From Delftia acidovorans NBRC 14950 (GTDB taxonomy: Bacteria; Pseudomonadota; Gammaproteobacteria; Burkholderiales; Burkholderiaceae_C), in NCBI RefSeq assembly GCF_001598795.1, contig NZ_BCZP01000012.1, positions 1-32,000 of the forward strand: a DNA stretch of 32,000 nucleotides. Reading direction: 5' to 3'. Positions 3,372 through 17,914 of the stretch are shown here, piece by piece (the stretch's first letter is position 1; the number at the start of each line of letters is the position of its first letter). Below the pieces are notes generated by a model. That model saw only the letters and a program-made list of their open reading frames with translations. It made no database searches and was not told the DNA's origin. The translations under genes were made by a program, and so were the position numbers.

Positions 3372-3409
3372 TGCGGTAGCATGCCCTTCATTTTTTAAGC
3401 GGGGCTTGT

Positions 3410-3724
3410 ATGAAAAAACTATTCTTAGTTGGGTCGCTTATTCCAGCGGCTTTCTACCTGTACGGCAGTTACCTTGTCCATCAGCATCGCAAGCCAGTTC
3501 TCGCGGAGTTGAAAGACCCAGATTCTGCGCAGTTTCGAAAGGAGCGCTTGGTCAGGAAGGGCGGATTCACTTTGGAGGGGACCATCCTCTGCGGAGAGGT
3601 GAACGCAAAAAATGAAATGGGTGGATTCGCGGGCTATAAGCCATTCGCATCTGCAGCCAACGGCAGGGCGGAAATAGGATCGGATGCCGTTGATAGAAAG
3701 TTCGTTGAACTCTACTGTGAGTAG
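3410..3724 (+). CDS. Moron: small exported or membrane-anchored protein (104 aa) with CGEVNAKNxMGGFxGY motif
   Basis: N-terminal hydrophobic segment MKKLFLVGSLIPAAFYLYGSYLV. Hand counts on two 60-nt lines give 48% and 52% GC, against about 65% for the flanks. It interrupts the normally contiguous GT-to-tape-measure junction and is followed by a terminator. Confidence 0.7.
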   Translation: MKKLFLVGSLIPAAFYLYGSYLVHQHRKPVLAELKDPDSAQFRKERLVRKGGFTLEGTILCGEVNAKNEMGGFAGYKPFASAANGRAEIGSDAVDRKFVELYCE

Positions 3725-3762
3725 GTTCGATATTCATTACTAGACCGGCATTGTTCGGTAGG

Positions 3763-3795
3763 AAAAGGGCTCGCTTTGGCGGGCCTTTTTGTTTG
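3763..3795 (+). terminator. Rho-independent terminator after the moron
   Basis: GGCTCGC (3768-3774), loop TTTG, GCGGGCC (3779-3785, one G-U pair), then TTTTTGTTT. Preceded by AAAA. Ends 9 nt before the tape measure ATG. Confidence 0.7.
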
Positions 3796-3803
3796 GGGGT
3801 CAC

Positions 3804-6800
3804 ATGGAAGAACAAAACCGCAAGATTGGCTTCGTGGTTTCTGCGGAAGACGACACCAAGACCACCTTTCAGAACATCAAGACCGGCGCGGCCGACATGG
3901 CTGCGTCTGTTGCCAAGTCCGGCGAGCAGGCGGCCAAGGGCGTGAAGGGGATCGGCGATGGCGCCGATGAAGCCGCCCAGAAGATGGGGCGCGCCGAGAG
4001 CGCCATGGCTCAGGCGCTGACCCGCGCCACTGAAAAAGCCCAGATTGCCGCCCAGGCCGGCGAAAGCCTGTCGCGTGCTTTCGAGCAGAAGATCGAGATG
4101 CGCGGTCTCGATGTGACCAAGTTGAACCCGCTGGTCGCCAAGCTGCGCGAGGCCGAGGAAGCGCTCGCCTCGTTCAAGGCCCAGCAGGCCAAGGACGCTG
4201 GTCAGAGCTCGTTCCTGGAGTCCCTGCGTTCGCAGACCCAGGCGCTTGGCAAAACCAAGGCCGAGCTGCTGGAGCTGCAAGCCGCGCAGCTGGGCGTTGC
4301 CAGCCAGGCGGCCCCGTACATCGCCAAGCTGCGCGAGACCGAGGCCGGCATGGGTCGAGTCGGAAACACGGCGGCCCAGACGGCACAAGCTATGCGCATG
4401 GTTCCGGCGCAGTTCACTGACATCGTTGTGTCGCTGCAAGCCGGTCAGGCGCCGCTGACGGTCCTCTTGCAACAGGGCGGCCAGTTGAAGGATATGTTCG
4501 GCGGTGCTGGCGCTGCTGCGCGCGGCATGGCTGGCTACGTGGTCGGCTTGGTGAATCCCTTCACCGTGGCTGCTGCTGCCGCCGCAACGCTCGGCGTCGC
4601 GTATTACCAAGGCAGCAAGGAGTCGGACAACTTCCGCCGCTCCCTTGTGCTGAGCGGCAACCAGGCCGGCACCACCGTCGATGAGCTGAATGCCATGGCT
4701 CGCGCCATCGCCAGCACATCGGGCACTCAGGGTGCTGCCGCTGCAGGCCTTGCCGATATGGCTCGCTACAGCAAGGTCGCATCCGACCAACTGAAGGACT
4801 TCACTGCCATCGCTCTGCAATGGGAGAAGACCACAGGCCAGGCCGTCAGCGAGACGGCCAAGCAGTTCGCGGACCTGGCCAAAGATCCGCTGCAGGCATC
4901 GCTCGCACTGAACGAGCAAATGAACTACCTGACGGCGAGCATCTACGACCAGATCAAGGCTCTGGAGAAGCAGGGCAAGACCGCCGAAGCTGCGGCCGTG
5001 GCTCAGAAGGCCTACGCAGACGCGATGAAGACCGGAGCAGACGAGCTGACCCAGAACCTGGGCTACATCGAGCGCGCGGTCCAGATAGTGACGGGCGGCG
5101 CGAAGAAGATGTGGGACGCCATCCTCGGCGTGGGGCGCCAGACCTCGCCCACGGACCAGGCGGCGAAGCACCTTGAAGCGCTGCAACAGGAGTTGAATAC
5201 AAAGCTCGCGCAGGGGCCAAAGAACGAGCAGTCGCGTACGAGCTGGGACAAGGGAGTCGAAAACCTGAAGCGGCAGATCCAGCAGGCCACCGATTTTTTG
5301 GCGTTCGCTGGCGCTGCTGGCAAGTCCATTGCCGAGACTCAGGCCGCCAACAAGGAGTACGTCGATGCAATGGAGGACTTCGACAAGCTTGCAGGCCAGT
5401 TTGCGACCAAGGATGTCAAGCGCAAGCAAGAGTTGACCATCGCTCAGAACACCTACAACAAGTCGGTTGAAGAAACGAAGCGAGCCTATGCCAACACGCC
5501 GGAGCTGGCGTCGAAGCTTGCTGATCTGGAGACGCGCTACAAGAACGCCGTCGAGGGGATCAACAAGCGGTACACCGAGAAGGGCTCGGGCGGCATCAGC
5601 ATCTCGGACAACCAGCTCGCGAACCTGGAAGGCCAGCTCGCCGCCGCCAAGCAGTACCGCGAACAGCTGCTCACGCTGGGCGTGGCCGCCGCTGACTTGA
5701 ACGTCGGTGAGCGCGAGTCGCTCAAGCTGTCGGCCCAGATCGAGAAAGCGACCAACGCGAAGACCCGGGCCAAGCTGGAAGAAGCCAAGGCCCTGGCCGA
5801 TGCCCTGGGCGTGCAGCTGCGCAGCAATGACGGCTTGGAGAAGTCGATGAAGGTCCAAGAAGCCCTCATTGCTGGCAACTTCAAGGCCGCTGATTCGATC
5901 ACCGACCGTGCGCGCGAGCAGGAGGCTGCCAACGCCGTGTTTGGCAAGGGCCGCACCGAGATCGAGCGCATGACGCTGGCCACGCTGCAGCAGCAGATGG
6001 CAGAGGCCCAGGGCAGCGACAGCTTCGACCCGAAGTACATCGCAAGCCTGGAGGCCAAGATCGCCGCCCAGAAACGCTATACGGCGGCGCTCCAGCAGGC
6101 CGACTACAAGCAGATGGACGACCGTCTCACCAAGTCGCTTCAGACCTCGAAGGATGAGCTGGCGATCCAGAAGGAGGGTCTGTCGCTGCTGGGTGCCGAT
6201 GAGGTGCAGCGCAAGAAGATCATCGCGCAGCGCCGCATCGAGTTGGAGCTCGCCAAGGAGCTTGCGGAGATCGACCGCACGATCTACAGCGACGACAAGG
6301 ACGAGAACGACAAGAAGCGCGAGACGCTGCGCCAGAAGGCCCGCGAGAAGGCCGAGACCAATACTCAGACCTCGCTGCTGCGCATCCAGGAGGAGTACGT
6401 CAACAAGCAGGTTGAGCAGTACGACGAGATCTTCCGCAAGGGCTTCGCAGACATGCTCAACAACGGGCGCGACGGCTGGGATAGCTTCACGAAGAGCCTG
6501 ACCACCACGTTCAAGACGACCGTGGCGGACCAAATCTACAAGATGTTCCTGCGCCCGTTCGTTGTGCAGGTGGTTGCCTCGCTGCTCGGCGTGCAGGGTG
6601 GTGGCGGCGCCGGGGCAAGTGGCCTTTCTGGTGTTGGTGGCGGTGGGTCCGGTGGATTTTCGATACCGGGCCTGCCCAGCATGGGCGGCAGCTATTTCAA
6701 TGCAGGCATGGCTGGAGGCTGGGCCGGTTTTGAGGGCGGCATTTCAATGATGCAGGCCGGAGAGTGGGCTGCGGGCGGCATGCAAGCCCTGGGCGCCGCC

Positions 6801-9098
6801 GCGCCCTACATCGGCGCACTGCTTCAGATTGGGCAAGGCAAATACGGCTCGGGCGTCGGCATGGCCGCTGGCGCTTACATCGGCTCGATTGTTCCTGTGA
6901 TCGGGACGGCGATTGGCGCACTCATCGGCGGCATTGTGGGTGGTCTGTTTGACGGCGGGGCGCGTGGCCCGAACCACTCCGGCGGCGTGGCGTCCACTGG
7001 GACGACCGACCGGGACCTGGCTGTCAAACAGGTGCTGGGTACTGATGCGTGGGGAAACACCCTCACCGACTTCACGGATCGTGGCAACAAGGACCTCGAC
7101 AAGCAGCTCGACAAGACCGTCAAAGGGATGCTCGATCTGTACAAGTCGCTCGCAAAGATCGGCGGCGTCAAGGCGCGCGATATCGACATAGCGGCTGGCT
7201 TTTCGGTCAATCCGAAATACGGCGACGAAGGGGCCATGGGCTTCTTTCAGCTCCTGGACAAGCAGACCGGGGAGGTGCTCAAGAAGTACAAAAATCGTGA
7301 TCTCGACAAAGACCCGCAGAAAGCGTGGGCGCAGTTTGTTGCAGACATGGGTGGCGAACTCGTCAACGAGATCAAGAAGGGCGACATACCCGGCTGGATG
7401 AAAGAGGAGCTGGATGCAATTGGCGAAAACGTCACCCTGGAAGGGCTCAATGCCGCGATTCAGAAGATCGCGATCATCGACGTGGCATTCAAGGGATGGG
7501 CTGATAGCGTCACTGGCTTTGCCAATCTGACTGCAAAAGCGCAAACAGAACTGCTCAAGTTCGCGGGCGGCATTGAAGCCTTGGCGAGCGGCGTGAATGC
7601 CTTCTACGCCGGCTTTTATTCGGAGCAAGAGCGGGCGCTGATCCTGCAGCGCCAGGTGCGAGACCAGCTCAAAAAGCTGGGCATCGACATCGATCCTGCT
7701 GGGGGCGAGGCAGCGAAGAAGGCTTTCAGGAAGCTCATCGAAGACGCTCTCGCATCCGGCAACAACGAGCTGGCGGCAAAGCTGCTGGCCCTGGCGCAGC
7801 TGTTCGGCGTGGCGGCCGATGCCGCGCAGAAGTCAGCGGACACGGCGGCCGAGGCGGCGAAGACTGCGGGAGATGAGGCAGCCAAGGCTGTCGAGGATGC
7901 GCGCAAGAAGGCCAAGGATGCCGCATACGCGAACTTCGAGGCAGCGATCCAGCGTGAGCAGAAGTACTGGCAGGACGTGGCCAGCGCATCGCAGGAGGCC
8001 ATAAGCAGCCTGTCGAGCGCGCTGAGCACGCTGCGCAGCAATGCGCGCGACCTGTACGGCTCGCTGGATGCCACGCAGCAGATGCTGGCCGCCCAGGGGA
8101 TGGTCTACATCGAGGACGCACTGTCGGGCGTGCGCGGCGGGCGAAAGCTCACCGACTACGCGGGCCTGACCGATGCTATCGGCGCGGCCCGTGGTGGCAT
8201 CAACTCGGGGCGCTACGCGACCCAGTTTGAACGCGACCGCGATGCGTTGGTCCTAGCTGGCCAGCTCAGCGAATTGGCAGACAAGGGCGATGCGCAGCTG
8301 AGTGCAGAGGAGCGGCAGCTCAAGGCCTCGCAGGAGCAGCTTGAGCGCCTGGACAAGACGCTCACGTACTGGCGCGACCAGCTGGCCGACAACAAGGCGC
8401 AGATCGATGCGACGCTGAGCGTCGAGGATGCCGTCAAGGCCCTGCATGCGCTGATACCAGGCTCCAACATCAACGGCGGTGGAACGGGTCAAAAGCCCGG
8501 CTCCAGCGGCGGCGCTGTGTGGGGGCCAGGGGGAGGCGGAAGCACGGCCGCAGATCCGAAGTACGTGCGGCCACGCGCGGACGGCTCTGGCGGCACCTGG
8601 TACGAGGGCATCACGGACCCGGGCCGCGTTGCCGAGCTGGACAAGCTCGCGGGCGGCTATCACAAGTTCGACGGCACAGGTGACGCTGCCGGGCTCAACG
8701 CCTGGATTCGGGAGAACAACCTGAAGCCGCAGGACCTGGCGGACCTCTCCGGCCTCTATGCACGCGACTGGGACAACTGGTTCAAGGCCAACGGTATCCC
8801 CGCCTTCGCGGGTGGCGGCCTGTTTGGCGGAGGCCTGCGTCTGGTCGGCGAGCGCGGTCCAGAGCTGGAAGTGACGGGCCCGGCGCGCTACTGGTCCTCT
8901 GCACAGACGCAGGCGCTGCTCAGTGGCGCGGGCGGCAATTCGCGCCTGGAGTCGTTGGTCGAGCAACTGGTCGCCGAGAACCGGCTGATGCGCGGGCAGA
9001 TCGCGGCGCTGGAGCGCAACACGGCTGGCATGCCGCAAATGGCCGAGCAGTTCGACACCGTGGCGGAGTCGGGCGTCCTGAGAGTGGGAACGGTATGA
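3804..9098 (+). CDS. Tail tape measure protein (1764 aa, lambda-family type)
   Basis: ATG 3804 with a GGGGG RBS (the track start TTG 3789 lies inside the terminator T-run). Long coiled-coil-type Ala/Gln/Lys-rich sequence. Contains the FTDIVVSLQAGQAPLTVLLQQGGQLKDMFGG motif typical of lambda-type TMPs, a Gly-rich hydrophobic block (GGGGAGASGLSGVGGGGSGG...), and a C-terminal VGERGPELEV motif. Confidence 0.9.
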   Translation: MEEQNRKIGFVVSAEDDTKTTFQNIKTGAADMAASVAKSGEQAAKGVKGIGDGADEAAQKMGRAESAMAQALTRATEKAQIAAQAGESLSRAFEQKIEMRGLDVTKLNPLVAKLREAEEALASFKAQQAKDAGQSSFLESLRSQTQALGKTKAELLELQAAQLGVASQAAPYIAKLRETEAGMGRVGNTAAQTAQAMRMVPAQFTDIVVSLQAGQAPLTVLLQQGGQLKDMFGGAGAAARGMAGYVVGLVNPFTVAAAAAATLGVAYYQGSKESDNFRRSLVLSGNQAGTTVDELNAMARAIASTSGTQGAAAAGLADMARYSKVASDQLKDFTAIALQWEKTTGQAVSETAKQFADLAKDPLQASLALNEQMNYLTASIYDQIKALEKQGKTAEAAAVAQKAYADAMKTGADELTQNLGYIERAVQIVTGGAKKMWDAILGVGRQTSPTDQAAKHLEALQQELNTKLAQGPKNEQSRTSWDKGVENLKRQIQQATDFLAFAGAAGKSIAETQAANKEYVDAMEDFDKLAGQFATKDVKRKQELTIAQNTYNKSVEETKRAYANTPELASKLADLETRYKNAVEGINKRYTEKGSGGISISDNQLANLEGQLAAAKQYREQLLTLGVAAADLNVGERESLKLSAQIEKATNAKTRAKLEEAKALADALGVQLRSNDGLEKSMKVQEALIAGNFKAADSITDRAREQEAANAVFGKGRTEIERMTLATLQQQMAEAQGSDSFDPKYIASLEAKIAAQKRYTAALQQADYKQMDDRLTKSLQTSKDELAIQKEGLSLLGADEVQRKKIIAQRRIELELAKELAEIDRTIYSDDKDENDKKRETLRQKAREKAETNTQTSLLRIQEEYVNKQVEQYDEIFRKGFADMLNNGRDGWDSFTKSLTTTFKTTVADQIYKMFLRPFVVQVVASLLGVQGGGGAGASGLSGVGGGGSGGFSIPGLPSMGGSYFNAGMAGGWAGFEGGISMMQAGEWAAGGMQALGAAAPYIGALLQIGQGKYGSGVGMAAGAYIGSIVPVIGTAIGALIGGIVGGLFDGGARGPNHSGGVASTGTTDRDLAVKQVLGTDAWGNTLTDFTDRGNKDLDKQLDKTVKGMLDLYKSLAKIGGVKARDIDIAAGFSVNPKYGDEGAMGFFQLLDKQTGEVLKKYKNRDLDKDPQKAWAQFVADMGGELVNEIKKGDIPGWMKEELDAIGENVTLEGLNAAIQKIAIIDVAFKGWADSVTGFANLTAKAQTELLKFAGGIEALASGVNAFYAGFYSEQERALILQRQVRDQLKKLGIDIDPAGGEAAKKAFRKLIEDALASGNNELAAKLLALAQLFGVAADAAQKSADTAAEAAKTAGDEAAKAVEDARKKAKDAAYANFEAAIQREQKYWQDVASASQEAISSLSSALSTLRSNARDLYGSLDATQQMLAAQGMVYIEDALSGVRGGRKLTDYAGLTDAIGAARGGINSGRYATQFERDRDALVLAGQLSELADKGDAQLSAEERQLKASQEQLERLDKTLTYWRDQLADNKAQIDATLSVEDAVKALHALIPGSNINGGGTGQKPGSSGGAVWGPGGGGSTAADPKYVRPRADGSGGTWYEGITDPGRVAELDKLAGGYHKFDGTGDAAGLNAWIRENNLKPQDLADLSGLYARDWDNWFKANGIPAFAGGGLFGGGLRLVGERGPELEVTGPARYWSSAQTQALLSGAGGNSRLESLVEQLVAENRLMRGQIAALERNTAGMPQMAEQFDTVAESGVLRVGTV

Positions 9099-10027
9099 AC
9101 ATTCTTTTGCCGAAAGCGATCACGCCGGATTCGTTCGGCCCCGCCACGTCGATTCCCGAGCTGGATGCAGCCCGGGGCGAGGTGGCGTGGGTCGGCTCCG
9201 GCAACTACAAGGTGGGCGACCGCCGCGTGTATGAAAGGAAAATCTATCAATGCGTGAAAGATCACACGGGCACCGCGACAACGCCGGACAAGATGCCGGC
9301 CGAGTGGCTCTTCAAGGAGCCAACTAACCGCTGGTGCCCGTTCGATCAATACCTGTTCACGAAGGCCCGCGCTGTTCAGTCGCTGACGTACGAGCTCAAG
9401 GGCGTGTTTGCCGATGGCCTGGCTCTGTATGGGCTGGAGGGCGACTCGCTCAGCATCACCATCACGGCCGGTCCTGGCGGGGCAAACCTGATTCCGCCCA
9501 TCAACGCGGACCTCTGGCAACAGGCATACGGCGAATGGGAATACCTCTTCGGCGATCTGCAGCGCGGCGATCACTACGTGCTCCGGGGCATCCCGCTGCA
9601 CCCCGACCAGCGCATCAAGATCACCGTGCGCCGCACCGCGCCGACGGCCGAGGCTGCAGTCGGCTACATCAGCGTGGGCAACCACAAAACGCTATTGGCC
9701 CCCTCGGGCGGCTTCAGCGCGGTCGAGGATGGCGCCGAGGTCACGACAAAGGACTACGGCTACACCAAAGACAACGCGGACGGCACCTACGAAGACATCG
9801 AGGGCCGCAAGGCCAAGAACATCAGCCTGTCCGTCGTGGTCGCCGCTGACCAGGCACCGCTGATCGATTCGCTGTTGACGCAGATCGCCGGCAAGGTGGT
9901 GGCAGTCGAAGTCTCCAAGCTGGCCAAGTTCTCGCACCTCGCAACCGTGGGCAAGGTCACTGGCACCGTGCGCTCCTCGGGCGGCCCAACTGCCCGCGCA
10001 GAAATCCAAATCAAAGGCAACGTATGA
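9095..10027 (+). CDS. Tail tip / distal tail-like protein with an N-terminal carbohydrate-binding-like motif (310 aa)
   Basis: ATGA overlaps with both the TMP and the fibre gene. The N-terminal NYKVGDRRVYERKIYQCVKDH...PAEW resembles CBM5/12-type aromatic motifs seen in phage tail proteins. Function inferred mainly from position. Confidence 0.45.
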   Translation: MNILLPKAITPDSFGPATSIPELDAARGEVAWVGSGNYKVGDRRVYERKIYQCVKDHTGTATTPDKMPAEWLFKEPTNRWCPFDQYLFTKARAVQSLTYELKGVFADGLALYGLEGDSLSITITAGPGGANLIPPINADLWQQAYGEWEYLFGDLQRGDHYVLRGIPLHPDQRIKITVRRTAPTAEAAVGYISVGNHKTLLAPSGGFSAVEDGAEVTTKDYGYTKDNADGTYEDIEGRKAKNISLSVVVAADQAPLIDSLLTQIAGKVVAVEVSKLAKFSHLATVGKVTGTVRSSGGPTARAEIQIKGNV

Positions 10028-11250
10028 CCGATATCGTCACGATCCCGGACGTGCTGCCGATCTCGCCCTATCCGGCGCTCGGCAGCACCAATTTCAACAA
10101 CGAGGCCTATGCATACGCCACGTCGGTCCCGCCCGCTGTCGCGCGCATGCGCGAGATCGCCGTCGCGTGCCGGACGTGTGCAATTGCGGCGCAGGAGTTC
10201 GCGGTGGCGGCTCAAGGCCATGCCAGCAATGCACTCACCTATGCCAACAATGCAGCCGGCAGTGCCAGCGGAGCGGCCACATCCGCTGGGAGCGCGCTCA
10301 CATCTGCCAATAGTGCCGCGACCAGTGCCAGCGGCGCTGCAGCCAGCTATGCGGCAATGCAGAAGCTGTACCTGGGTGCCAAGACGGCAAACCCCACGAC
10401 GGACAACCAGGGCAATGCGCTGCAGGTTGGCGCGTGGTACACATATATCGGCACGGACCCCGCATACAAAGGCGTGTGGCTCTGGTGGGATGGCACAGCC
10501 TGGAACCCGGGTATTGGGCCAGTGGCGGCCACGCTCATGCCAAAGACTGGAGGCGTCTTCTCGGGCCATGTGTCCGGGCCAAGCGGAGCGACCGGGGCGC
10601 AGCACCCGCAGGCTCAGGAGGTGATGCTGAAGGCTCCAGAGGCCTGGGGAAAAGACAAGCTGATGGGTGATTTGGGCGTCGGCTACGCGCTGATGACCAC
10701 TTCGACGGGTCGAGGCGCGGATTGGCCTGTGGAGGGCTATGACGAGAACTTCCAAGCGTGGGATGTCACGACTACCGGCATCCCTTCCCGGATGGTTCAG
10801 GTTGCCACGCAGGTATTCACGACAAACGTGTATGCCCGCACTCAAGGAAGTACCTGGATGCGGTGCCGACATGACGCCACATGGGGGGCGTGGTCTCGCG
10901 TGATTACAGACACGACTGCGATGGGTAAGCAGATAACGGTCAATCAGCCTGCTGGGACGCCGACTTACACCGTGGACCCCGGTTTGGGTGGTGTGCATGT
11001 CGTAACGATTAACGCGACATGCCAATTCATATTGCCTATCGGTCGACAATATGGCGATGAGGTCACGCTGCACGTTATCAGCGCAGGCGCAATACGCGCA
11101 ATTACGTTTTCCGCCAACGTTAGACTGCCAATTGACGGGACTGGTGCACTTTTGCCGTTTCCTCAGTATCCGGCGGGCGGGATGGTAAGCCTCATTTTTA
11201 CCTGCAATCTCGTCAATCGCTGGGAATGCTTTTATGCGGGGGTGCATTGA
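10024..11250 (+). CDS. Tail fibre protein (408 aa)
   Basis: Ala/Ser heptad-like segment (ASNALTYANNAAGSASGAATSAGSALTSANSAATSASGAAAS) followed by KLYLGAKTANPTTDNQGNALQVGAWY, a pattern typical of phage fibres. The C-terminal third drops to about 50% GC. Confidence 0.75.
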   Translation: MTDIVTIPDVLPISPYPALGSTNFNNEAYAYATSVPPAVARMREIAVACRTCAIAAQEFAVAAQGHASNALTYANNAAGSASGAATSAGSALTSANSAATSASGAAASYAAMQKLYLGAKTANPTTDNQGNALQVGAWYTYIGTDPAYKGVWLWWDGTAWNPGIGPVAATLMPKTGGVFSGHVSGPSGATGAQHPQAQEVMLKAPEAWGKDKLMGDLGVGYALMTTSTGRGADWPVEGYDENFQAWDVTTTGIPSRMVQVATQVFTTNVYARTQGSTWMRCRHDATWGAWSRVITDTTAMGKQITVNQPAGTPTYTVDPGLGGVHVVTINATCQFILPIGRQYGDEVTLHVISAGAIRAITFSANVRLPIDGTGALLPFPQYPAGGMVSLIFTCNLVNRWECFYAGVH

Positions 11251-11957
11251 TGTTTGCACGAAGTATGTTGATGGCTAGCGGGCAGCGGCAGATAAACGTC
11301 ATTATCTCGGCCAATGTCCGCAGCCCAAACATTTCCGCACTTGCTACCGCGCAGGGGTGGCGCGGCACTGAAAACATCACTCTTGTGATCAATGCCGGGG
11401 TGGATGTGGCCACGCTGCAGATATCGGGCATTCCAGACGACCGGCTGCACATCATAAACAACGGTCGTATCGGCGGGGTGCTGAATAGCGGCACTGGCTT
11501 GTACACCCGCATCCGAATCCTCGTCACAAATAACGGCACGATATTCGGCGGCGGGGGCGCGGGTGGTCGAGGCAGCTCCGCAGGCTATTCATACCCTGGG
11601 GGAACAAGCGATACAGCCCAGGGCGGAGTAGGTGGTAATGGCGCAGGATTTACTGCATCTGCAGCGGTATCAATGGTCGCCAGAGACACAAGCCCCGCCC
11701 CCACAAGCGGATCGTATGTCAGCTACTCCGGCGCGATTTTCCCTGGCGACACTCGCCCCTGGGCTCAGGGCGGCTTCGGCGGATCCGGTGGCGCTATTGG
11801 GGTTGCAGGAGCGAATGGCGAAAACGCATCCAGCGGAGGAACTGGTGCGACAGGCTCTGTCCCTGGGAGTCCGCCCGCTGCAGCTGGCTACTACCTCGAC
11901 GGAAACGCATACGTCACATGGCTTGCAACCGGCACGCGCCTCGGCCGCGTTATTTGA
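11250..11957 (+). CDS. Glycine-rich tail-fibre-associated protein (235 aa), putative adhesin
   Basis: ATG 11250 overlaps the fibre stop (TGATG). The N-terminal beta-strand-like repeats (ITLVINAG, LHIINNG, ILVTNNG) are followed by several Gly-rich blocks (GGGGAGGRG, GGVGGNGAG, GGFGGSGGAIGVAGANG). Confidence 0.55.
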   Translation: MFARSMLMASGQRQINVIISANVRSPNISALATAQGWRGTENITLVINAGVDVATLQISGIPDDRLHIINNGRIGGVLNSGTGLYTRIRILVTNNGTIFGGGGAGGRGSSAGYSYPGGTSDTAQGGVGGNGAGFTASAAVSMVARDTSPAPTSGSYVSYSGAIFPGDTRPWAQGGFGGSGGAIGVAGANGENASSGGTGATGSVPGSPPAAAGYYLDGNAYVTWLATGTRLGRVI

Positions 11958-11965
11958 GGATCAAC

Positions 11966-12478
11966 ATGTACATCAACACCGAAACCGGGCAATACCCGCT
12001 GAGCGTTGCTCAGATCCAGGAGCTGCACCCCATGACGATGATGGCCCAGCATCTGGAATGCTATGCCCCAGTGGAGCCCACCGACACGCCCGCATATGAC
12101 GCGGACACGCAAAAGCCGATTGAGGTCGAGCCTGTGGAAATCGACGGCGTTTGGCGGCAGCAGTGGTCCGTCGTGCCGCTCACCGAAGATGAGCTGGCCG
12201 AGCTGCAGCGCCTACGCGATGAGGCTGCGGCCGCGCTGATCCCGAAGTCCTGCACGCGGCGCCAGGGGCAGCTTGCGCTCCTCGCTCATGGCGTGCTGGA
12301 CGATGCAGAGGCGGCCATTGCAGCGATCACTGACCCCGTGCAAAAGCGCGAAGCCCAGATCGAGTACGAGGCGGACACATGGGAGCGTGCAAACCTGTTC
12401 CTGCAGCAACTGTGGGCGCAGCTTGGCGGCACGCCGCAGTCGCTCGATGAGGCCTTCGCACTCGCTGTGACTCTCTGA
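11966..12478 (+). CDS. Tail fibre assembly / chaperone-like protein (DUF4376-like C-terminus)
   Basis: ATG 11966 with a GAGGA RBS (the longer track start at 11918 overlaps the upstream gene). MYINTETGQYPLS... N-terminus and a C-terminal CTRRQGQLALLAHGVLDDAEAAIAAI...EYEADTWERAN pattern recalled from DUF4376 proteins next to fibres. Confidence 0.55.
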   Translation: MYINTETGQYPLSVAQIQELHPMTMMAQHLECYAPVEPTDTPAYDADTQKPIEVEPVEIDGVWRQQWSVVPLTEDELAELQRLRDEAAAALIPKSCTRRQGQLALLAHGVLDDAEAAIAAITDPVQKREAQIEYEADTWERANLFLQQLWAQLGGTPQSLDEAFALAVTL

Positions 12479-12496
12479 TCAGCCCCACTCCACAAC

Positions 12497-12518
12497 AGCC
12501 GCCTTCGGGCGGTTTTTT
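12497..12518 (+). terminator. Rho-independent terminator closing the tail module
   Basis: CCGCC (12499-12503), loop TTCG, GGCGG (12508-12512), then TTTTTT (12513-12518). Lies 19 nt after the stop of the preceding gene. Confidence 0.8.
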
Positions 12519-12537
12519 CATGCCCGGAGGAGGGCCG

Positions 12538-12936
12538 ATGAATCAACTTGAACCAACAGCTGCAGCTGTGGCAATCGCGTCCGTGCTCTTCGGGCCTGCG
12601 ATGGCGGGCTACATCGGGCCGTATGCGGTGATCCTCATTGCATCGACCGTGGGAGCCGCGTGGGCACTGGGCCGGCGCGATCCCAGCTCGCGGCTCGGCG
12701 CCGTGGGCTACTTCGCCCGGCTCAACGCCACGGCCTTGCTCATCACTGCCGGCCTGGCCACGCTTGCCGGGCGCTGGATGGGTATGGATGAGACCAACTG
12801 GATGTTGGCGCCCATTGCGCTCGTCGTGGGTGGCGTGGGCGACGACTGGCCGCGTTTGGGCCGTTGGGTCTTCGAGCGCGCCGGGCGCGTGCTGGAGCGC
12901 AAAGCGGGCGGTGGCGGGGAAGGGGGCACTCCATGA
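12538..12936 (+). CDS. Putative holin (multi-TMD membrane protein, 132 aa)
   Basis: ATG 12538 preceded by GGAGGA (12527-12532). Three or four hydrophobic helices and a charged C-terminal tail. It is the first gene of a cluster ending in endolysin and spanins. Confidence 0.55.
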   Translation: MNQLEPTAAAVAIASVLFGPAMAGYIGPYAVILIASTVGAAWALGRRDPSSRLGAVGYFARLNATALLITAGLATLAGRWMGMDETNWMLAPIALVVGGVGDDWPRLGRWVFERAGRVLERKAGGGGEGGTP

Positions 12937-13232
12937 CATGGCAATCCCATCAACTGCTTGCGATGCTCAACCTCGCGATTTGCACAGGCATCGGCTGGGC
13001 ATGCATCTGCCGGCTCAACTCCCATGTGGCTCGGGCGCACAAGCTGGCCCGCGCCAGGTATGCACTGCTCCTGGCCGGCGCGCTGGCCTCGGGCATGCAG
13101 CCGGCCCTGTGGGGCACATGGACCACTGTGGGCGACACCATCTTCAGCGCCTGCGTGCTCGCGGGCCTGCTCATCAACGTGGCGCGCTGGCACGGCGCTG
13201 GCCACCCCATGCGACGGAGTGACGACCAATGA
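12933..13232 (+). CDS. Second holin-like / antiholin-like 3-TMD membrane protein (99 aa)
   Basis: ATG 12933 overlaps the upstream stop (ATGA). Three predicted TMDs (LLAMLNLAICTGIGWACICRL, YALLLAGALASGMQPALW, IFSACVLAGLLINV) and a basic C-terminus. Its stop overlaps the endolysin ATG. Confidence 0.5.
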   Translation: MTWQSHQLLAMLNLAICTGIGWACICRLNSHVARAHKLARARYALLLAGALASGMQPALWGTWTTVGDTIFSACVLAGLLINVARWHGAGHPMRRSDDQ

Positions 13233-13705
13233 CCTACTTCGATGACTGCTTCGAGAAGCTGATCGGCCACGAGGGCGGCTACGTCAGCAATCCCAAGGAT
13301 CCGGGCGGCGAGACCAAGTTCGGGATCAGCAAGCGCGCATATCCAGGCCTGGACATCAAGGCGCTGACGCTGGCCGAGGCCAAGGCCATCTACCGGCGCG
13401 ACTACTGGGATCGGGCGCGATGCGATGAACTGCCCCATGGCGTGGCCTTCGATGTGTTCGACGGTGCGGTGAACTCTGGCATTGGTCAGGCCATTCGCTG
13501 GCTGCAGCGCGCGGCCGGCGTAGCGGATGACGGCATCGTGGGGCCGCTGACCCTCGCGGCTGTGCGTCGCGCCGACCCGGAGGCTATCCAGGCGCGCTAC
13601 AGCGGCCACCGGCTGGAATTCATGGCGCGCCTTTCGACATGGGACACGTTTGGGCGAGGCTGGGCACGACGCGTCGCAAGCAATTTGCAGGGGGTTGGAT
13701 CATGA
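13229..13705 (+). CDS. Endolysin, glycoside hydrolase family 108 lysozyme with C-terminal PG_binding_3-type domain
   Basis: N-terminal FEKLIGHEGGYVSNPKDPGGETKFGIS is the hallmark GH108 motif. The C-terminal ...AGVADDGIVGPLTLAAV... matches the peptidoglycan-binding module usually fused to it. Confidence 0.9.
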   Translation: MTYFDDCFEKLIGHEGGYVSNPKDPGGETKFGISKRAYPGLDIKALTLAEAKAIYRRDYWDRARCDELPHGVAFDVFDGAVNSGIGQAIRWLQRAAGVADDGIVGPLTLAAVRRADPEAIQARYSGHRLEFMARLSTWDTFGRGWARRVASNLQGVGS

Positions 13706-13809
13706 AATCGACGCTGATGAAGTGGGCCACGACGGCCCTTTTTGTTGCCTGGGAGGCTGGCTTGCGCGCCCGTGGCTGGGCTCGCAGGAAAGGCTGGTGG
13801 CCGCGATGA
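13702..13809 (+). CDS. 35-aa micro-ORF (MKSTLMKWATTALFVAWEAGLRARGWARRKGWWPR), putative membrane-active lysis accessory peptide
   Basis: It exactly fills the gap between the endolysin stop and the i-spanin start, with ATGA overlaps at both ends (13702-13705 and 13806-13809). Hydrophobic N-half and Arg/Trp-rich C-half. Confidence 0.35.
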   Translation: MKSTLMKWATTALFVAWEAGLRARGWARRKGWWPR

Positions 13810-14174
13810 TGAGCCCCACACAGATCATCCTGGCTGCGCTGGCGGCCGGCAACTTGCTTCTGGGCTGGGCCTGGCTGTCCGCCCGCGATGACGTGGCCAC
13901 GGCTACCGCTGAACTGGTGAGCATGACGGGGCAGCGCGACGGCGCGCTCAAGGGCGCGCAGGCCTGCAGCGATGCCACCGAGGCCCTGGGCGCGACCGCC
14001 GCGCAGCGTGCTGCCGAAGCGGGGCCTGCCCGCGCCGTTGCCGCTGGCCAGGCTGCCGCGCTCAATGCCCGCGCCGACTACACCCTGGCCACGGCTCCTG
14101 CCGCCCCCGGCGATAGCTGCGCGAGCCTGCAGACCCTGGGCAGCGACTGGCTCAAGGGGAGGGCCAAGCCATGA
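13806..14174 (+). CDS. i-spanin (Rz-like), 122 aa
   Basis: N-terminal TMD (IILAALAAGNLLLGWAWL) followed by an Ala/Gln-rich helical periplasmic domain with Cys residues. Follows the endolysin, and its stop overlaps the o-spanin ATG. The upstream part of track ORF 13650.. has no TMD and overlaps the endolysin. Confidence 0.7.
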   Translation: MMSPTQIILAALAAGNLLLGWAWLSARDDVATATAELVSMTGQRDGALKGAQACSDATEALGATAAQRAAEAGPARAVAAGQAAALNARADYTLATAPAAPGDSCASLQTLGSDWLKGRAKP

Positions 14175-14428
14175 TGCGCGCCATCCTGCTGCTGGGCGCG
14201 CTGGTCCTGGCCGGCTGCGGCTCCGTGCCAAGGGTCGAAGTCCAGACAGTCAAGGTGCCCGTGCCCGTGGAGTGCCGCGAACCGATCCCCGACCGGCCCA
14301 GCATGCCCACGGAAGCCCTGGCAGACGACGCCGACCCCTTCGAGTTGCTGCGCGCTGCGCTGGCCGAGATCGACCGCCGCGAGGGCTACGAGGTGCGGCT
14401 GCTGGCCGCGCTTATAGCCTGCATGTGA
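14171..14428 (+). CDS. o-spanin (Rz1-like outer-membrane lipoprotein), 85 aa
   Basis: Signal peptide with lipobox VLAGC (Cys16) and a Pro-rich mature part (VKVPVPVECREPIPDRPSMP). Separated (non-embedded) spanin architecture. Confidence 0.8.
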   Translation: MMRAILLLGALVLAGCGSVPRVEVQTVKVPVPVECREPIPDRPSMPTEALADDADPFELLRAALAEIDRREGYEVRLLAALIACM

Positions 14429-14520
14429 CCCCTGATGACGCGTGTAGTTTCAAAGCAGAAGTCAGACCAGTAAATGAACTGACGACTTCAGAGAATCTGA
14501 CTTGCAACGGCTCTCTTAAT

Positions 14521-15630
14521 TTATTTGGCTTTGCGTCGGAGTAACAGCGACAAAAAGGCGATTATCGAAGATAAGGCGAATAGTCCAAGTTCACCAATAG
14601 TTGGTACTGCAGTGATTGTTGGTTTAGGAGGAGCTATGTTTGTAAGGGATACATTGCCAGTCGCTGTTCCGCCTCGGCCATCAGAAATTTCATACTGAAA
14701 TGAGATAGGATCTGTGGCATTGCCAGAGGGGGAGAAGGTGATTTCTCCTACTGCCGAGACTCCGATGCTTCCGCCTGTTATCAAAATGTTTGATGGAGTA
14801 CCGCGAGTAATTGGATTTCCATTAATACTGATGATCTGCAAAGTATCCGAATCTGCGTCAGTATCGTTCGCCAAAATATTTAGTATGGTGGGCGAGTTAG
14901 GTATAGAGTATTTGTCCGGATTGGCGATCGGCGGATTGTTCTGGATTTTTGGATTGGTGTAAGTCTGGAAATTATAGAAACCGACAACTTCACCCACTGA
15001 ATCAAGGCCCATCCAACGAATCTCTTTTATGAAGAGACCAGCCGCAATATCAGAAGGAGACAAAGTCACTCCGAATTTCTGAGGTGGGGCATCAAACACG
15101 TTCGTGGAGTCAGAAACTATTGTGCTCGTGCCGTCACTCGCAAAAATTTGGAGATTCGATCTCTCAAATACGTCGTTCCAATCGACAAAATCGAAGCTGA
15201 AAGCAGCAATCGCTGAGTTGGCTAGCTTGAAGGAGATGCCGTTATCTGAATTCACGGCGGCATATATTCCGGGAACTGCTGGTGCTCCGGAGTTCCAAAA
15301 TAGACATTCTTCGGAAAAATTCGATGCACCCGACCCTGAGTTTAAGGTTTGGCAATATTTCGAAGGAGACCAAGGAGTGCCTGTATTGGGTCCGTAAGCC
15401 TCTACGGTAAAACCATTCCATTTATCCGGATTTCCCGCACTTCCTATCGGCTTCAGGTTGACAGAGGAACTGAAATCTTCATGAGTGGCAATTGTTCCAG
15501 AACCAATCGCAGACAAAAATCCGGGTTGATCGTCGATGAAGGTTGAAAACGTGGCCGCATGGCTACCCGCGATCCAAGAAAACATCACAAAGACGGCCGT
15601 GTTCCGTAGTGAAGATATTTCAAAACGCAT
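14521..15630 (-). CDS. Secreted cadherin-like-repeat protein with an IPTL-CTERM-type C-terminal sorting signal (369 aa)
   Basis: Signal peptide (MRFEISSLRNTAVFVMFSWIAGSHA/ATF). NILANDTDADSDTLQIISING is a cadherin-like/VCBS-type motif. The C-terminus VPTIGELGLFALSSIIAFLSLLLRRKAK has an IPTL-like motif, a TM helix and a basic cluster, matching my recollection of the IPTL-CTERM domain. Confidence 0.75.
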   Translation of the reverse strand: MRFEISSLRNTAVFVMFSWIAGSHAATFSTFIDDQPGFLSAIGSGTIATHEDFSSSVNLKPIGSAGNPDKWNGFTVEAYGPNTGTPWSPSKYCQTLNSGSGASNFSEECLFWNSGAPAVPGIYAAVNSDNGISFKLANSAIAAFSFDFVDWNDVFERSNLQIFASDGTSTIVSDSTNVFDAPPQKFGVTLSPSDIAAGLFIKEIRWMGLDSVGEVVGFYNFQTYTNPKIQNNPPIANPDKYSIPNSPTILNILANDTDADSDTLQIISINGNPITRGTPSNILITGGSIGVSAVGEITFSPSGNATDPISFQYEISDGRGGTATGNVSLTNIAPPKPTITAVPTIGELGLFALSSIIAFLSLLLRRKAK

Positions 15631-16058
15631 ATCAATCTTTCATAGATGGAATTTATGGAGGGACGGAGCTTGCCGGAAAATTATCTTCTTCTCAATAAGG
15701 GTAATTGTTAAATTTTGTTAAGCAGATTTCGGAGTGGCCTATCCCTTTTTCACTACTAGTTATCGATAAGTGAGAGGCCATAAGCAGGCTCGAACAATTC
15801 AGGAACGGTCAGTGAAAAAGCGTCGTGGTACGTGATATTAAGGGTTAATACCTATATTCAAATTCCTTGTAATTGTTGTGGTAAATAGATGCAACATGGA
15901 TTTTTGTGTTAAATGCAGGTGAATGTGAGGTGACAGCTCTTGCAGTGCCGAAGTCGGATCTGCAACGCAGGATGACTTTTTAAAAAAATGTTAATTCTTG
16001 GCATGAAGTGTTACTTGTCGATAGCCGTAGGGCATGATGAGAATGACCTATCGATAAC

Positions 16059-16088
16059 GCAAAATTGAGCATTTTGCTTAAGCAAAAC
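16059..16088. repeat. Three-arm inverted-repeat element GCAAAAT-TGAGC-ATTTTGC-TTAA-GCAAAAC upstream of the SRAP-like gene
   Basis: Arms at 16059-16065, 16071-16077 and 16082-16088. The last two form the perfect 16-nt palindrome TTTTGCTTAAGCAAAA (16072-16087). Lies about 95-120 nt upstream of ATG 16182. Confidence 0.6.
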
Positions 16089-16181
16089 AGGATGGGTTTG
16101 GTTCGAAGCGGATGCTTGTTTAGTAAGCTTGCGAATTCCGCTCTGTGAAAATCCTGAATAGCGATTCAAGAGGCTCTCGGC

Positions 16182-16880
16182 ATGGGTAATAGATATAGCT
16201 CTCCCGATATTTCTGATATTGACGAAATCTATCCGCTGCAAGGACCTGCTCCTAAAAAGGGGTGGGGTGTATATATAGTGCCATTGGCATGCGGTCCATA
16301 TATTAAAGCATGTGAATGCTTAGAAGTTGGGCAATGGGGGTTGATTCCAACGACGTCGCTAAGCAGGCGTCCTTTAAATTTGGATGGTTCCCCTATGTCA
16401 ACGGAAAAAGCGTTCAGAGAAACGTTGAGCAATGATTACGTCTTTGGCCCGTCTTGGCATGCAGGCCGAAGGTGTCTTATCCCAGTGAGCAGCTGGATCG
16501 AGAATTACTCTGGTTTATCTGGTCGCAGTATTAATTGGATGTTCCGGCGTTCCGATGGAAAGCCTGCAATGTTGGCAGGGCTGTATAGTGAATGGATCGA
16601 TCCGGTGAGCGGAGAGAAGGTGCCGAACTACACGGTGATCACACAAGATGCCGGAGCGCATCCAGTTCTCTCTCTCATGCACAGGCCTGGCAGAGAAAAG
16701 AGGTGTGTGGTAGTCCTGGAGCGCCAAGACTGGGATGCTTGGCTGCATTGCGCTCCGTCCCAAGCAGATTCATTGATTAAGTTGCCCATGATGGGGACGT
16801 TGAAGAGCGGGGCAGAAAACCCAGACGAAGAAGCTCTGTTGCCTCTTGAGCAGTTGCGCGCATTAAAGGCAGGTGGTTAA
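16182..16880 (+). CDS. SRAP (SOS-response-associated peptidase, YedK/HMCES) fold protein lacking the catalytic Cys2 (232 aa)
   Basis: Block-by-block similarity to E. coli YedK as I recall it: MCGRF/MGNRY; FWGYAPGW/QWGLIPTT; RAICFADGWFEW/RRCLIPVSSWIEN; PFFIYRADGQPIFMAAI/NWMFRRSDGKPAMLAGL; LIVTAAA...IHDRRPLVL/TVITQDA...MHRPGREKRCVVVL. AAGAGG RBS. An in-frame TGA 27 nt upstream excludes a longer N-terminus. Confidence 0.75.
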   Translation: MGNRYSSPDISDIDEIYPLQGPAPKKGWGVYIVPLACGPYIKACECLEVGQWGLIPTTSLSRRPLNLDGSPMSTEKAFRETLSNDYVFGPSWHAGRRCLIPVSSWIENYSGLSGRSINWMFRRSDGKPAMLAGLYSEWIDPVSGEKVPNYTVITQDAGAHPVLSLMHRPGREKRCVVVLERQDWDAWLHCAPSQADSLIKLPMMGTLKSGAENPDEEALLPLEQLRALKAGG

Positions 16881-16984
16881 TTTGGTGCTTGCTATCCAAT
16901 CGCGTGGCAATTTATCAAGTTTTTTTCTCGTGCAGAAATCAGCTATAAATTGGGCTTGGTAATCTTGTTAAAAACGGTGAGAGC

Positions 16985-17173
16985 ATGGAATTAAATATTT
17001 ATGAGATTCTGCTATTCATTGCATTGCAATTAATTTGCTTCTCGTTTTTTATGATAATATTTTGGACGTATTGTATTGTTGTGAAATCAAAAATAAGAGA
17101 ATCTTTTAATATCTTGGCTTTTATTTTTGGAGTTTTGGTATCTTTCGTCGCTGCAGATTTTCTCACGCCGTAG
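16985..17173 (+). CDS. Possible 62-aa two-TMD hydrophobic protein
   Basis: ATG 16985 with GGTGAGAG upstream. Two hydrophobic stretches (ILLFIALQLICFSFFMIIFWTYCIVV and ILAFIFGVLVSFVAADFL) separated by KSKIRESF. Extremely AT-rich, so a chance ORF is less likely but not excluded. Confidence 0.35.
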   Translation: MELNIYEILLFIALQLICFSFFMIIFWTYCIVVKSKIRESFNILAFIFGVLVSFVAADFLTP

Positions 17174-17287
17174 CAGATTTTTATTGGAATTGCCGTACCG
17201 CATCTTGTCAAGATTTGCTGCGCATATTTTTTGTTAAAAGACTGAGTGGGAAGATAAAGATCACTCCGCGTCCGGTATCAGGAGCTT

Positions 17288-17578
17288 ATGCAAGGCCGTC
17301 AAGCCATAATCTACACGCTGCACATAGATATGCAGGTTTCTGGTTGCTATACGGACCGGATCTTGCATGGGAATGTCGAGCTCTTCGAGTTCCAGGCGGC
17401 CACGCTCTCCGGTGCAATCCGAGATGGTTGTTCCGTTGGCAACTTGCTGCGACTAGAGGGATTCCACATCTGGTACGGCCATGTGTCCATCGGCACCACG
17501 TCGCTCTATGCCATGCGCCACGACGCCGAGACGCTGGCGCAGCGGCTAGTGAGCCTGCATTCGCAGTTCGGCGGGTAG
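17288..17578 (+). CDS. Hypothetical protein (96 aa)
   Basis: ATG 17288 preceded by AGGAG (17278-17282). The alternative frames and strand give Arg-rich junk. No family recognised. GC is intermediate, and it lies between the island and the tRNA. Confidence 0.4.
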   Translation: MQGRQAIIYTLHIDMQVSGCYTDRILHGNVELFEFQAATLSGAIRDGCSVGNLLRLEGFHIWYGHVSIGTTSLYAMRHDAETLAQRLVSLHSQFGG

Positions 17579-17763
17579 GGGGAGCGCAGCCCGAACTGTC
17601 TTGGTCGGATCTGAAATCCGAGCAAGTTGAAGGCACTTGGTGTGCTGGTGAGGGTACGGAGAGGCCTGAGGAAGAAGCGCCGCTGCGGGCGAGCCAGCTG
17701 CAAGCGCCATCGGCTGAACAGGGGGCTTGAGCTGCCGAGGCTCAGGTATGCTTTGGCAGCTGC

Positions 17764-17790
17764 AAAACAAAAAGGGAAATTGAGTTTCCC
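17764..17790 (-). terminator. Rho-independent terminator downstream of tRNA-Thr
   Basis: The minus strand reads GGGAAA-CTCAA-TTTCCC followed by TTTTTGTTTT. It lies about 50 nt 3' of the tRNA. Confidence 0.7.
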
Positions 17791-17838
17791 CAATTTCCCC
17801 CCAGAATCCTTGCGGAACCCGCATGGATGCTATGTTTT

Positions 17839-17914
17839 TGGTGCCGGAGAAAGGAATCGAACCCTCGACCTTCTCATTACGAATGAGCTGCTCTACCAAC
17901 TGAGCTACACCGGC
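17839..17914 (-). tRNA. tRNA-Thr (anticodon CGU), 76 nt with encoded CCA
   Basis: Minus strand: GCCGGTG TA GCTC AGTTGGTA GAGC A GCTCA TTCGTAA TGAGA AGGTC GAGGG TTCGATT CCTTT CTCCGGC ACCA. It folds by hand into a cloverleaf with anticodon CGT. One U6-U67 acceptor mismatch and two G-U pairs in the T stem. Confidence 0.9.

Follow-up and report, generated by a model that had tools for sequence, protein, structure and literature searches.

A stretch of 32,000 nt from Delftia acidovorans NBRC 14950 (contig NZ_BCZP01000012.1, positions 1 to 32,000 of the forward strand; hereafter the window) carries, at 16182..16880 on the plus strand, a gene of 232 codons plus stop for an SRAP protein in which glycine stands in the place of the catalytic cysteine. 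We confirmed this protein as Cys-less, and comparison with its relatives points to a naturally maintained, mobile-element-borne SRAP that would be unable to make the signature crosslink of its family. The SRAP family is defined by its N-terminal Cys, which the founding analysis called "absolutely conserved, always the second amino acid" (PMC3765255), and the thiazolidine crosslink underlies everything known of YedK/HMCES biology. Literature searches turned up no account of SRAPs that naturally lack the Cys. The evidence comes from the list of open reading frames (ORFs), Pfam and Foldseek searches, an AlphaFold (AF2) model and the ratio of nonsynonymous to synonymous differences per site (pN/pS).

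Family assignment and start codon

The window protein belongs to the SRAP family by homology and by fold. Pfam SRAP (PF02586) matched it over profile positions 54-192 of 214 (E-value = 7.1e-20, 71.9 bits with a cut-off of 27.1) and PHROG 1599 matched it with an E-value of 1.6e-23. The best solved relative in a sequence search was 1zn6 (E-value = 1e-17), a protein of Bordetella bronchiseptica described as "phage-related", and the family profile retrieved 2f20 (4.5e-45), 1zn6 (5.6e-39) and YedK (1.6e-11). The AF2 model, made from 15 sequences, reached a predicted local distance difference test score of 89.2 and a predicted template modeling (TM) score of 0.88. Its top 20 Foldseek matches in the PDB were SRAP proteins only (E-values from 1e-20 to 3e-9), and the next match stood at 0.33. 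These 20 take in HMCES-DNA and YedK-DNA complexes as well as the Schiff-base complex of YedK C2A (8D2M). 1zn6 was also the best structural match (TM 0.81/0.88), YedK and the SRAP domain of human HMCES, DNA complexes included, gave a TM of 0.62-0.71, and 8D2M gave 0.65-0.68.

Translation from the ATG yields an N-terminus reading MGNRYSSPD. An in-frame TGA lies 27 nt 5' of this ATG (16155..16157, plus strand), and the eight codons between them (ATA GCG ATT CAA GAG GCT CTC GGC) include no Cys codon. A Shine-Dalgarno-like AAGAGG (16168..16173, plus strand) ends 8 nt before the ATG; since a purine-rich counterpart is kept at the equivalent place in five homologous loci, the ATG at 16182 is taken as the true start. 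The TGA, the lack of Cys codons and the conserved Shine-Dalgarno site together rule out an upstream or alternative start that would add a Cys. A sequencing error at codon 2 is excluded as well, because five divergent loci from independent assemblies all have GGT, as do many strains, and the identical protein is recorded in five contigs. The first-pass annotation of this gene had read it as an SRAP that begins MGNRY and has lost Cys2, with the conserved Asn replaced in TEKAFRET, the Glu of WIEN and the His of LMHRP retained, and a TGA 27 nt upstream with no Cys codon in between. All of these readings held, those on the catalytic columns by alignment to YedK. Loss of the Arg77 equivalent, the variability of residue 2 (G/S/V/D) and the alternative of lyase chemistry known from YedK C2A/C2S (PMC9436759) were absent from it.

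Catalytic and DNA-contact residues

Residues were mapped by aligning the family profile to YedK chains, and two multiple alignments agree on the result; window numbering runs ahead of that of YedK, so that window residues 76 and 78 correspond to YedK 75 and 77. Codon 2 (GGT, Gly; 16185..16187, plus strand) occupies the place of the catalytic Cys2 of YedK and HMCES, a column that is Cys in 91 of the 123 full-length relatives. Codons 76-78 (AAA GCG TTC, Lys-Ala-Phe; 16407..16415, plus strand) correspond to N75-A76-R77 of YedK. Within them, Lys76 (in STEKAFRET) replaces Asn75, which in YedK hydrogen-bonds the backbone of Cys2 (PMC3765255), and Phe78 replaces Arg77; the two columns are Asn in 104/123 and Arg in 108/123 full-length relatives. 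Other key positions are retained, all on the plus strand: Glu107 in WIEN (GAG, 16500..16502; YedK Glu105) and the phosphate anchor Thr154 (ACA, 16641..16643; YedK Thr149) are invariant both in the first of these multiple alignments and in the 26 Cys-less alleles described below, and so are His167 in LMHRP (CAC, 16680..16682; YedK His160) and the phosphate anchor Arg174 (AGG, 16701..16703; YedK Arg162), both placed by profile alignment. Arg4 also matches Arg4 of YedK. Compared with YedK and HMCES, the window protein thus keeps the counterparts of Arg4, Glu105, Thr149, His160 and Arg162 but has Gly, Lys and Phe for Cys2, Asn75 and Arg77 and no Trp pair in the place of W67/W68. It further differs from them in a 30-residue, conserved acidic C-terminal tail and in being cargo of a mobile element and not a chromosomal repair gene.

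The effect of these residues on binding of single-stranded DNA (ssDNA) has been measured in YedK, where R77A, T149A and R162A each abolish it, R4A and N75A weaken it about 16-fold and 17-fold, E105A strengthens it about 18-fold and H160A does not weaken it (PMC6821365). From the phosphate-anchor trio the window protein has Thr154 and Arg174, both invariant; the Arg77 equivalent is Phe78, which varies as F, S or C within the Cys-less clade and is Cys in its Cys-bearing sister. The adjacent Arg79 is kept in 25 of the 26 Cys-less alleles. The closest experimental analogues are the engineered C2A and C2S forms of YedK, which have no thiol at residue 2 and intact Glu and His (PMC9436759); these are laboratory mutants that still possess Asn75 and Arg77, whereas the window protein has replaced both and is naturally maintained.

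Several candidates for a substitute catalytic residue were considered and rejected. Lys76 as a new nucleophile or as a fixed substitute for Arg77 is not supported, as position 76 is K, T or N, or R in a decayed copy. Cys37 and Cys43/45 were ruled out as stand-in nucleophiles because these residues vary, and the idea that Gly2 is conserved and hence catalytic, which arose from the GGT codon in five loci, was dropped when residue 2 proved to be G, S, V or D across cluster members. Net charge and isoelectric point were uninformative as proxies for DNA binding.

Past the SRAP domain, residues 209-232 (window 16806-16877) form a conserved, acidic, helical extension (SGAENP.EE.LLP..QL..L) found in canonical phage relatives as well as in Cys-less ones. 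This tail may serve in protein interaction, but its sequence does not match QL[SD]LF, which we take to be the bacterial clamp-binding consensus.

The Cys-less clade and the order of losses

Homologue searches returned a compact group, mostly from Delftia. In total, 26 distinct full-length Cys-less alleles were gathered from Delftia strains; the cassette around the window gene recurs next to genes of integrative and conjugative elements (ICEs). The 232-aa cluster representatives P0001, P0002, P0003 and P0005 are 69-90% identical to the window protein, begin with MGNRY and read TEKA or TETA. P0004 is 73% identical and reads MCSRY and TTENAC, and P0007-P0010 are canonical proteins at 55-60% identity with MCNRY and STNNARRET; all of these 232-aa sequences align without gaps. 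The 90% cluster of the window protein has 51 member sequences from many Delftia strains, and the 13 full-length members listed all read MG, STEKAFRE, WIENY and LMHRP.

In the tree, the Cys-less SRAPs form one clade (90% bootstrap) whose sister is the Cys-bearing P0004 lineage, and this topology was unchanged with 22 sequences and when columns 2 and 76 were left out. All five Cys-less loci with DNA have GGT at codon 2, where P0004 has TGT; at codon 76, four of the five have a Lys codon (AAA or AAG) and P0005 has a Thr codon (ACA), where P0004 has AAT for Asn. The window clade is separated from P0004 by one base at codon 2 and one base at codon 76. Four positions alone set every Cys-less sequence apart from both P0004 and the canonical relatives, which retain them: C2, N76, E12D/G and A91S. 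The last two are conservative changes, which leaves the nucleophile and the Asn that in YedK fixes its backbone as the sole non-conservative changes specific to the clade. P0004, also from Delftia (MCSRY, TTENACRET; 55% GC), has the same three-gene cassette as the window (cadherin-like gene, SRAP gene and an 89-aa ORF) and, like the window clade, has Glu75 and no Arg77 equivalent (Cys78), but it keeps Cys2 and Asn76, as do 11/11 full-length members checked of its cluster. On this distribution of residues, loss of the Arg77 equivalent and the change of Asn75 to Glu75 (window numbering) are placed earlier, in the common ancestor with P0004.

Residue 2 among the 26 alleles is G in 22, S in two, V in one, which is P0242, and D in one, which is P0240, and it ranks within the 28 most variable of the 232 sites; residue 76 is K in 23, N in two and T in one, and residue 78 is F, C or S. 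Invariant across all 26 are R4, Y5, T74, E75, A77, E107, T154, H167, R168 and R174. The S, V and D variants of residue 2 are tip changes within the P0003 and P0002 clusters. In one tip lineage (P0243, P0247) G2S and K76N occur together, so that the canonical Asn is regained beside a hydroxyl residue. This would be a second instance of positions 2 and 76 changing together and, being a single event, is only suggestive. The otherwise invariant Gly170 of the HRPG motif has changed to Asp independently in P0240 and P0241, which belong to different Cys-less subclades.

Selection on the Cys-less gene

Pairwise dN/dS by the method of Nei and Gojobori (NG86) ranges from 0.04 to 0.18 within the Cys-less clade, with dS from 0.4 to above 3 and synonymous sites near saturation. 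Uncorrected pN/pS of the Cys-less SRAPs against relatives is 0.16-0.28, with bootstrap 95% upper limits of at most 0.35, and the N-terminal 71 residues of the clade are also constrained (0.16-0.36). At the key positions the clade varies synonymously: codon 107 is GAG or GAA, codon 154 ACA, ACT or ACG, and codon 167 CAC or CAT, and synonymous codon differences occur at R4, T74, E107, T154, H167 and R168. These patterns indicate that the Cys-less SRAP is maintained by purifying selection after loss of the catalytic Cys and is not a pseudogene.

Substitutions at otherwise invariant positions are unevenly spread, with 11 private changes in P0002, eight in P0005 and 0-4 in canonical relatives. Locus L095 (D. 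acidovorans GCA_040394515.1) harbors two Cys-less SRAP copies 4 kb apart (815-1513 and 5788-6483) in an ICE-like region, with an IS3-family element and a cadherin-like gene between them. The first copy has Asp2 and G170D and a pN/pS of 0.15 when compared with P0002. The second is annotated from Met72 as a 161-aa protein and is taken up again below; the gene is, on the whole, kept yet can be lost.

Proposed function and alternative explanations

No thiazolidine crosslink is possible for the window protein, because the ring needs a 1,2-aminothiol, which is absent. The C2A and C2S forms of YedK likewise make no crosslink (PMC9436759, PMC6821365). We tentatively favor the view that the protein keeps the ssDNA and abasic-site groove and is most likely a reversible, non-crosslinking binder of ssDNA lesions. 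It would bind ssDNA or abasic sites reversibly, having given up the covalent trap, and might serve the carrier prophage or ICE by shielding lesions for a time or by competing with the crosslinking SRAP of the host. Possible purposes for the element would be shielding without a replication-blocking adduct, competition with the host SRAP or sensing of damage. The first-pass annotation had likewise offered a pure binder, a decoy or a regulator as possible roles. We infer DNA binding, its reversibility and this biological role, and rank binding first because the phosphate anchors are invariant, positions 2 and 76 have been released and one allele has Asp2. The release of Asn76 together with residue 2 suggests that selection no longer keeps the N-terminus precisely in place. 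Methionine aminopeptidase permits removal of Met1 when residue 2 is Gly, Ser or Val and should be blocked by Asp2. Gly, Ser or Val at this position should expose the alpha-amine, so some Schiff-base or apurinic/apyrimidinic (AP) lyase side chemistry is likely; as the selected function it is less likely.

Several observations weigh against this picture of a maintained, reversible binder. The Arg77 equivalent is F, S or C, although R77A kills ssDNA binding by YedK (PMC6821365); its loss weighs less in that the Cys-bearing P0004 also lacks it and the neighboring Arg79 is kept in all but one allele. The Trp pair of YedK (W67/W68) is absent from the whole phage SRAP subfamily. A pure binder gives no obvious reason for the invariance of Glu107 and His167, and since Glu105 and His160 are dispensable for binding by YedK, that invariance fits chemistry better than binding, yet it is weak evidence either way because 105 of the 232 sites (45%) are invariant in the clade. 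The core of the protein (aa 72-200) has a pN/pS of 0.16-0.25 in Cys-less and of 0.08-0.09 in canonical sequences, a constraint weaker by 2- to 3-fold. Finally, the second copy at L095 has a premature stop at codon 54 and changes at 10 of 93 otherwise invariant positions, and for both reasons it is a true pseudogene.

A natural AP lyase is the main alternative, which we consider doubtful. The alpha-amine of Gly2, freed by removal of Met1, would attack the ring-opened abasic site and beta-elimination would cut the ssDNA, with Glu107 and His167 catalyzing ring opening and imine formation and the imine left untrapped for want of a thiol. Such cutting could serve a mobile element against incoming ssDNA or in the processing of its own DNA. 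N-terminal-amine AP lyases such as Fpg/Nei (Pro2) and T4 endonuclease V (Thr2) serve as a working analogy. Residue 2 is compatible with Met removal in 25 of the 26 alleles, going by what is generally known of methionine aminopeptidase, and Glu107 and His167 are invariant in 26/26. The lineage with G2S and K76N restores a site like that of YedK C2S, hinting that the pocket is still under some selection. In YedK C2A and C2S the N-terminal amine forms a Schiff base that borohydride can trap, and AP-DNA is cleaved, with rate constants of 0.05 (C2A), 0.002 (C2A/E105Q) and 0.02 (C2A/H160Q), and the window model superposes on the structure obtained in that work (8D2M, PMC9436759) with a TM of 0.65-0.68. 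The lyase of mutant YedK is, however, slow and a by-product. Position 76, which as Asn positions the N-terminus in YedK, is now variably K, T or N, the Arg77 equivalent is lost, and the Asp2 allele should block Met removal, yet it shows a pN/pS of 0.15 with P0002. Cutting of ssDNA at replication forks would moreover harm the host, and the cassette shows no evident gene for immunity or control. An extension of the same chemistry, which we hold to be unlikely, is that Delftia mobile elements have made an abasic-site shield into an enzyme for conflict between elements, either an ssDNA AP lyase or one that forms imines reversibly. Such an enzyme might cut or mark the abasic ssDNA that phages or conjugating plasmids bring in, or it might prevent crosslinks between the host SRAP and the DNA of the element itself, and the allele series from C2/N76 through G2/K76 to S2/N76 would represent the steps of change.

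We give still less credence to a scaffold repurposed for a role unrelated to abasic sites, in which the SRAP fold would bind a protein through its acidic C-terminal tail or a new ligand in the old pocket. The residues that line the abasic site in YedK (C2, N75 and R77) are all replaced and variable here, the constraint on the core is somewhat relaxed, and the 30-residue C-terminal extension is conserved between Cys-less and canonical phage relatives. The tail is nevertheless no mark of a new function, as Cys-bearing relatives have it too. A role without DNA would not need T154, R174 and R4, which are invariant, and the cassette offers no conserved partner gene, its 96-aa neighbor also occurring without SRAP. 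Least probable is a relic, without function since the loss of the Cys and on its way to a pseudogene as a passenger of a mobile cassette. The decayed copy at L095, the private changes in P0002 and P0005 and the free variation of residue 2 are what such drift would leave, but the pN/pS of 0.16-0.28 with its low upper limits at near-saturated synonymous sites, the 26 distinct intact 232-aa alleles with zero indels and the key codons that vary only synonymously speak for retention. The window copy is also unlike the decayed L095 copy, which is the local example of drift.

Prophage and cargo cassette

The phage or mobile-element setting suspected by the first-pass annotation was borne out, and the SRAP gene is a prophage cargo gene ("moron"), lying between the lysis genes and the attachment (att) end in DNA whose composition is unlike that of the phage. 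The late region of the prophage spans 2620..14544 on the plus strand, as recognized by Pfam Phage_TAC_4, TMP_2 and Glyco_hydro_108 and by PHROG tail-fiber matches. It comprises a tail assembly chaperone (2620-3063), a tape measure protein of 1769 aa (3789-9098), a tail-fiber-like protein (10024-11250) and an endolysin of glycoside hydrolase family 108 (13229-13705). The integrase end of the prophage falls outside the window. Beyond the late region, the composition profile and blastn define a low-GC cargo cassette of 3.06 kb (14519..17579). GC content between about 14500 and 17800 is 44-50% in a background of 62-72%, and window 14519-17579 aligns as a single 3073-nt block to Delftia lacustris locus L004 (6342-9392, 77% identity), where the cassette adjoins an insertion sequence (IS) element and a giant ICE-type polyvalent protein. 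Parts of the cassette were also aligned by blastn to L008, L013, L014 and L001, and an SRAP copy stands beside a TraI_2 relaxase in L001 and L095.

Besides the SRAP gene, the cassette contains a divergent cadherin-like gene and two ORFs, a strongly hydrophobic one of 62 aa and another of 96 aa. The divergent gene (14521..15630, minus strand) encodes a secreted 369-aa protein with Big_9 (E-value = 9.6e-17) and Cadherin_5 (1.3e-9) matches in Pfam. Its C-terminal tail (VPTIGELGLFAL...RRKAK) resembles an IPTL-CTERM sorting signal, and the homologue in L008 has PF18203 (IPTL-CTERM). At about 45% GC the gene is very AT-rich for its genome. It adjoins SRAP in L003-L006, L008-L010 (with the Cys-bearing P0004), L013, L020 and L095, and the pair is thus linked across prophage, ICE and chromosomal contexts. 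The 62-aa ORF, taken from the ORF list, lies 3' of SRAP (16985..17173, plus strand) and has two predicted membrane-spanning stretches as judged by eye. L001 and L003 contain a homologous ORF and L002 a called 62-aa gene, the ORF is conserved in P0002 loci, and family searches with it gave no match. The 96-aa hypothetical protein (17288..17578, plus strand) had no Pfam, NCBIfam or PDB match. It belongs to a family of 89-96-aa proteins (MIYTLHIDMQVSG...HIWYGHV.IGTTSLYAMRHDAE) with 33 homologous clusters, none with a Pfam domain, which repeatedly takes the last place in Comamonadaceae prophages, whether or not an SRAP gene is present; the L013 copy looks frameshifted. Since the family is found at prophage ends without SRAP, and follows lysis genes in L027-L031 where there is no SRAP, we ruled out the 96-aa protein as a dedicated SRAP partner.

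Downstream, tRNA-Thr(CGT) was called by ARAGORN and Rfam at 17839..17914 on the minus strand and is likely the integration site of the prophage. Chromosomal FBPase and PepN genes follow beyond it (Pfam on adjacent ORFs). A 14-bp stem followed by a T run (17771-17802, minus strand) lies directly downstream of this tRNA and bounds the right edge of the inserted DNA; it is probably the tRNA-Thr terminator. A direct repeat of the tRNA 3' end, which would have marked the cassette as an integrative element of its own, was looked for between 13500 and 18000 and did not turn up. A consensus scan revealed no sigma-70-like site on the plus strand upstream of SRAP and no convincing terminator was seen after the gene. 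SOS regulation was discarded, with no LexA-box-like site near the SRAP gene, and so was a known defense system, with no PADLOC match for SRAP, the cadherin-like protein or the 62-aa ORF.

Canonical phage relatives and other Cys-less lineages

Canonical relatives sit in the equivalent slot of other prophages, between lysis genes and an integrase or att site. The SRAPs of Comamonadaceae and Burkholderiales prophages (P0007-P0010) have the full gap-free 232 aa, the C-terminal tail and the genome slot in common with the window protein but keep MC...TNNARRET (Cys2, Asn and Arg) and a host-like GC, whereas the window gene lies in the low-GC cassette with the cadherin-like gene. GC content of the canonical relatives is 66%, and about 80% at third codon positions, compared with 50% for the window SRAP gene. 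All 62 related viral loci in IMG/VR carry the Cys; the apparent exceptions L080 and L052 are mapping offsets, as L080 reads MC in context and the alignment of L052 starts only at query residue 49. None of the IMG/VR relatives exceeds 61% identity, and some 46 of the 62 are no more than 3 kb away from the end of a contig. Collections of sequenced phages and plasmids gave only distant relatives (at most 43% identity). A scan of the genome collection with the single window protein gave no match, and an alignment-based scan of species-representative genomes retrieved canonical Cys-bearing relatives only.

In the canonical phage SRAPs of L022, L023, L024, L039, L043-L047, L050 and L051 the codon before the Cys is Ile and not Met, in the contexts EVIIC|NRY and EAAIC|NRY, and the frame is open upstream. 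This implies that translation begins at an unusual ATH codon or that the Cys is exposed by cleavage of a longer precursor; such a precursor would fit the autopeptidase activity proposed for SRAP (PMC3765255).

Loss of Cys2 is not confined to the window clade, as several further, independent lineages without it are found among the 123 full-length relatives. Other full-length SRAPs have G (P0029), S (P0066, P0095), A (P0072), T (P0115, P0157), H (P0133) or R (P0158) at residue 2, with N-termini such as MGIRY (P0029), MSNVY (P0066), MSIHY (P0095) and MHPHY (P0133, from Roseateles puraquae). P0029, P0066, P0095, P0133, P0158 and P0072 match the window protein with E-values from 2.5e-26 to 8.7e-13 and 29-38% identity. 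P0066 keeps Asn, Arg, Glu and His together with Ser2 and is a natural C2S, while P0029, P0133 and P0072 have lost Glu and/or His too. P0133 has 12 database members, and several other Cys-less lineages are also multi-member.

Significance for the SRAP family

Judging from its alignments, the window SRAP is not to be filed as an abasic-site crosslinker, as it fails in both the Cys2 and the Asn75 features. Database entries for Cys-less SRAPs are named "SOS response-associated peptidase" or "Abasic site processing protein", and these labels mislead because they imply an activity that such proteins cannot have. The clade runs counter to a residue regarded as invariant at textbook level. Interest is limited by the narrowness of the clade, and loss of catalytic residues is common across enzyme families. 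Nevertheless, the clade and its relatives amount to a natural experiment, in which residue 2 (Cys, Gly, Ser, Val or Asp) and residue 76 (Asn, Lys or Thr) vary between proteins of 70-90% identity, and this allele series makes the choice between binder and lyase directly testable in a natural sequence background. For the family as a whole, the dropping of the Cys and its partner Asn, combined with purifying selection and spread on prophages and ICEs, would imply a second, non-crosslinking use of the SRAP fold.

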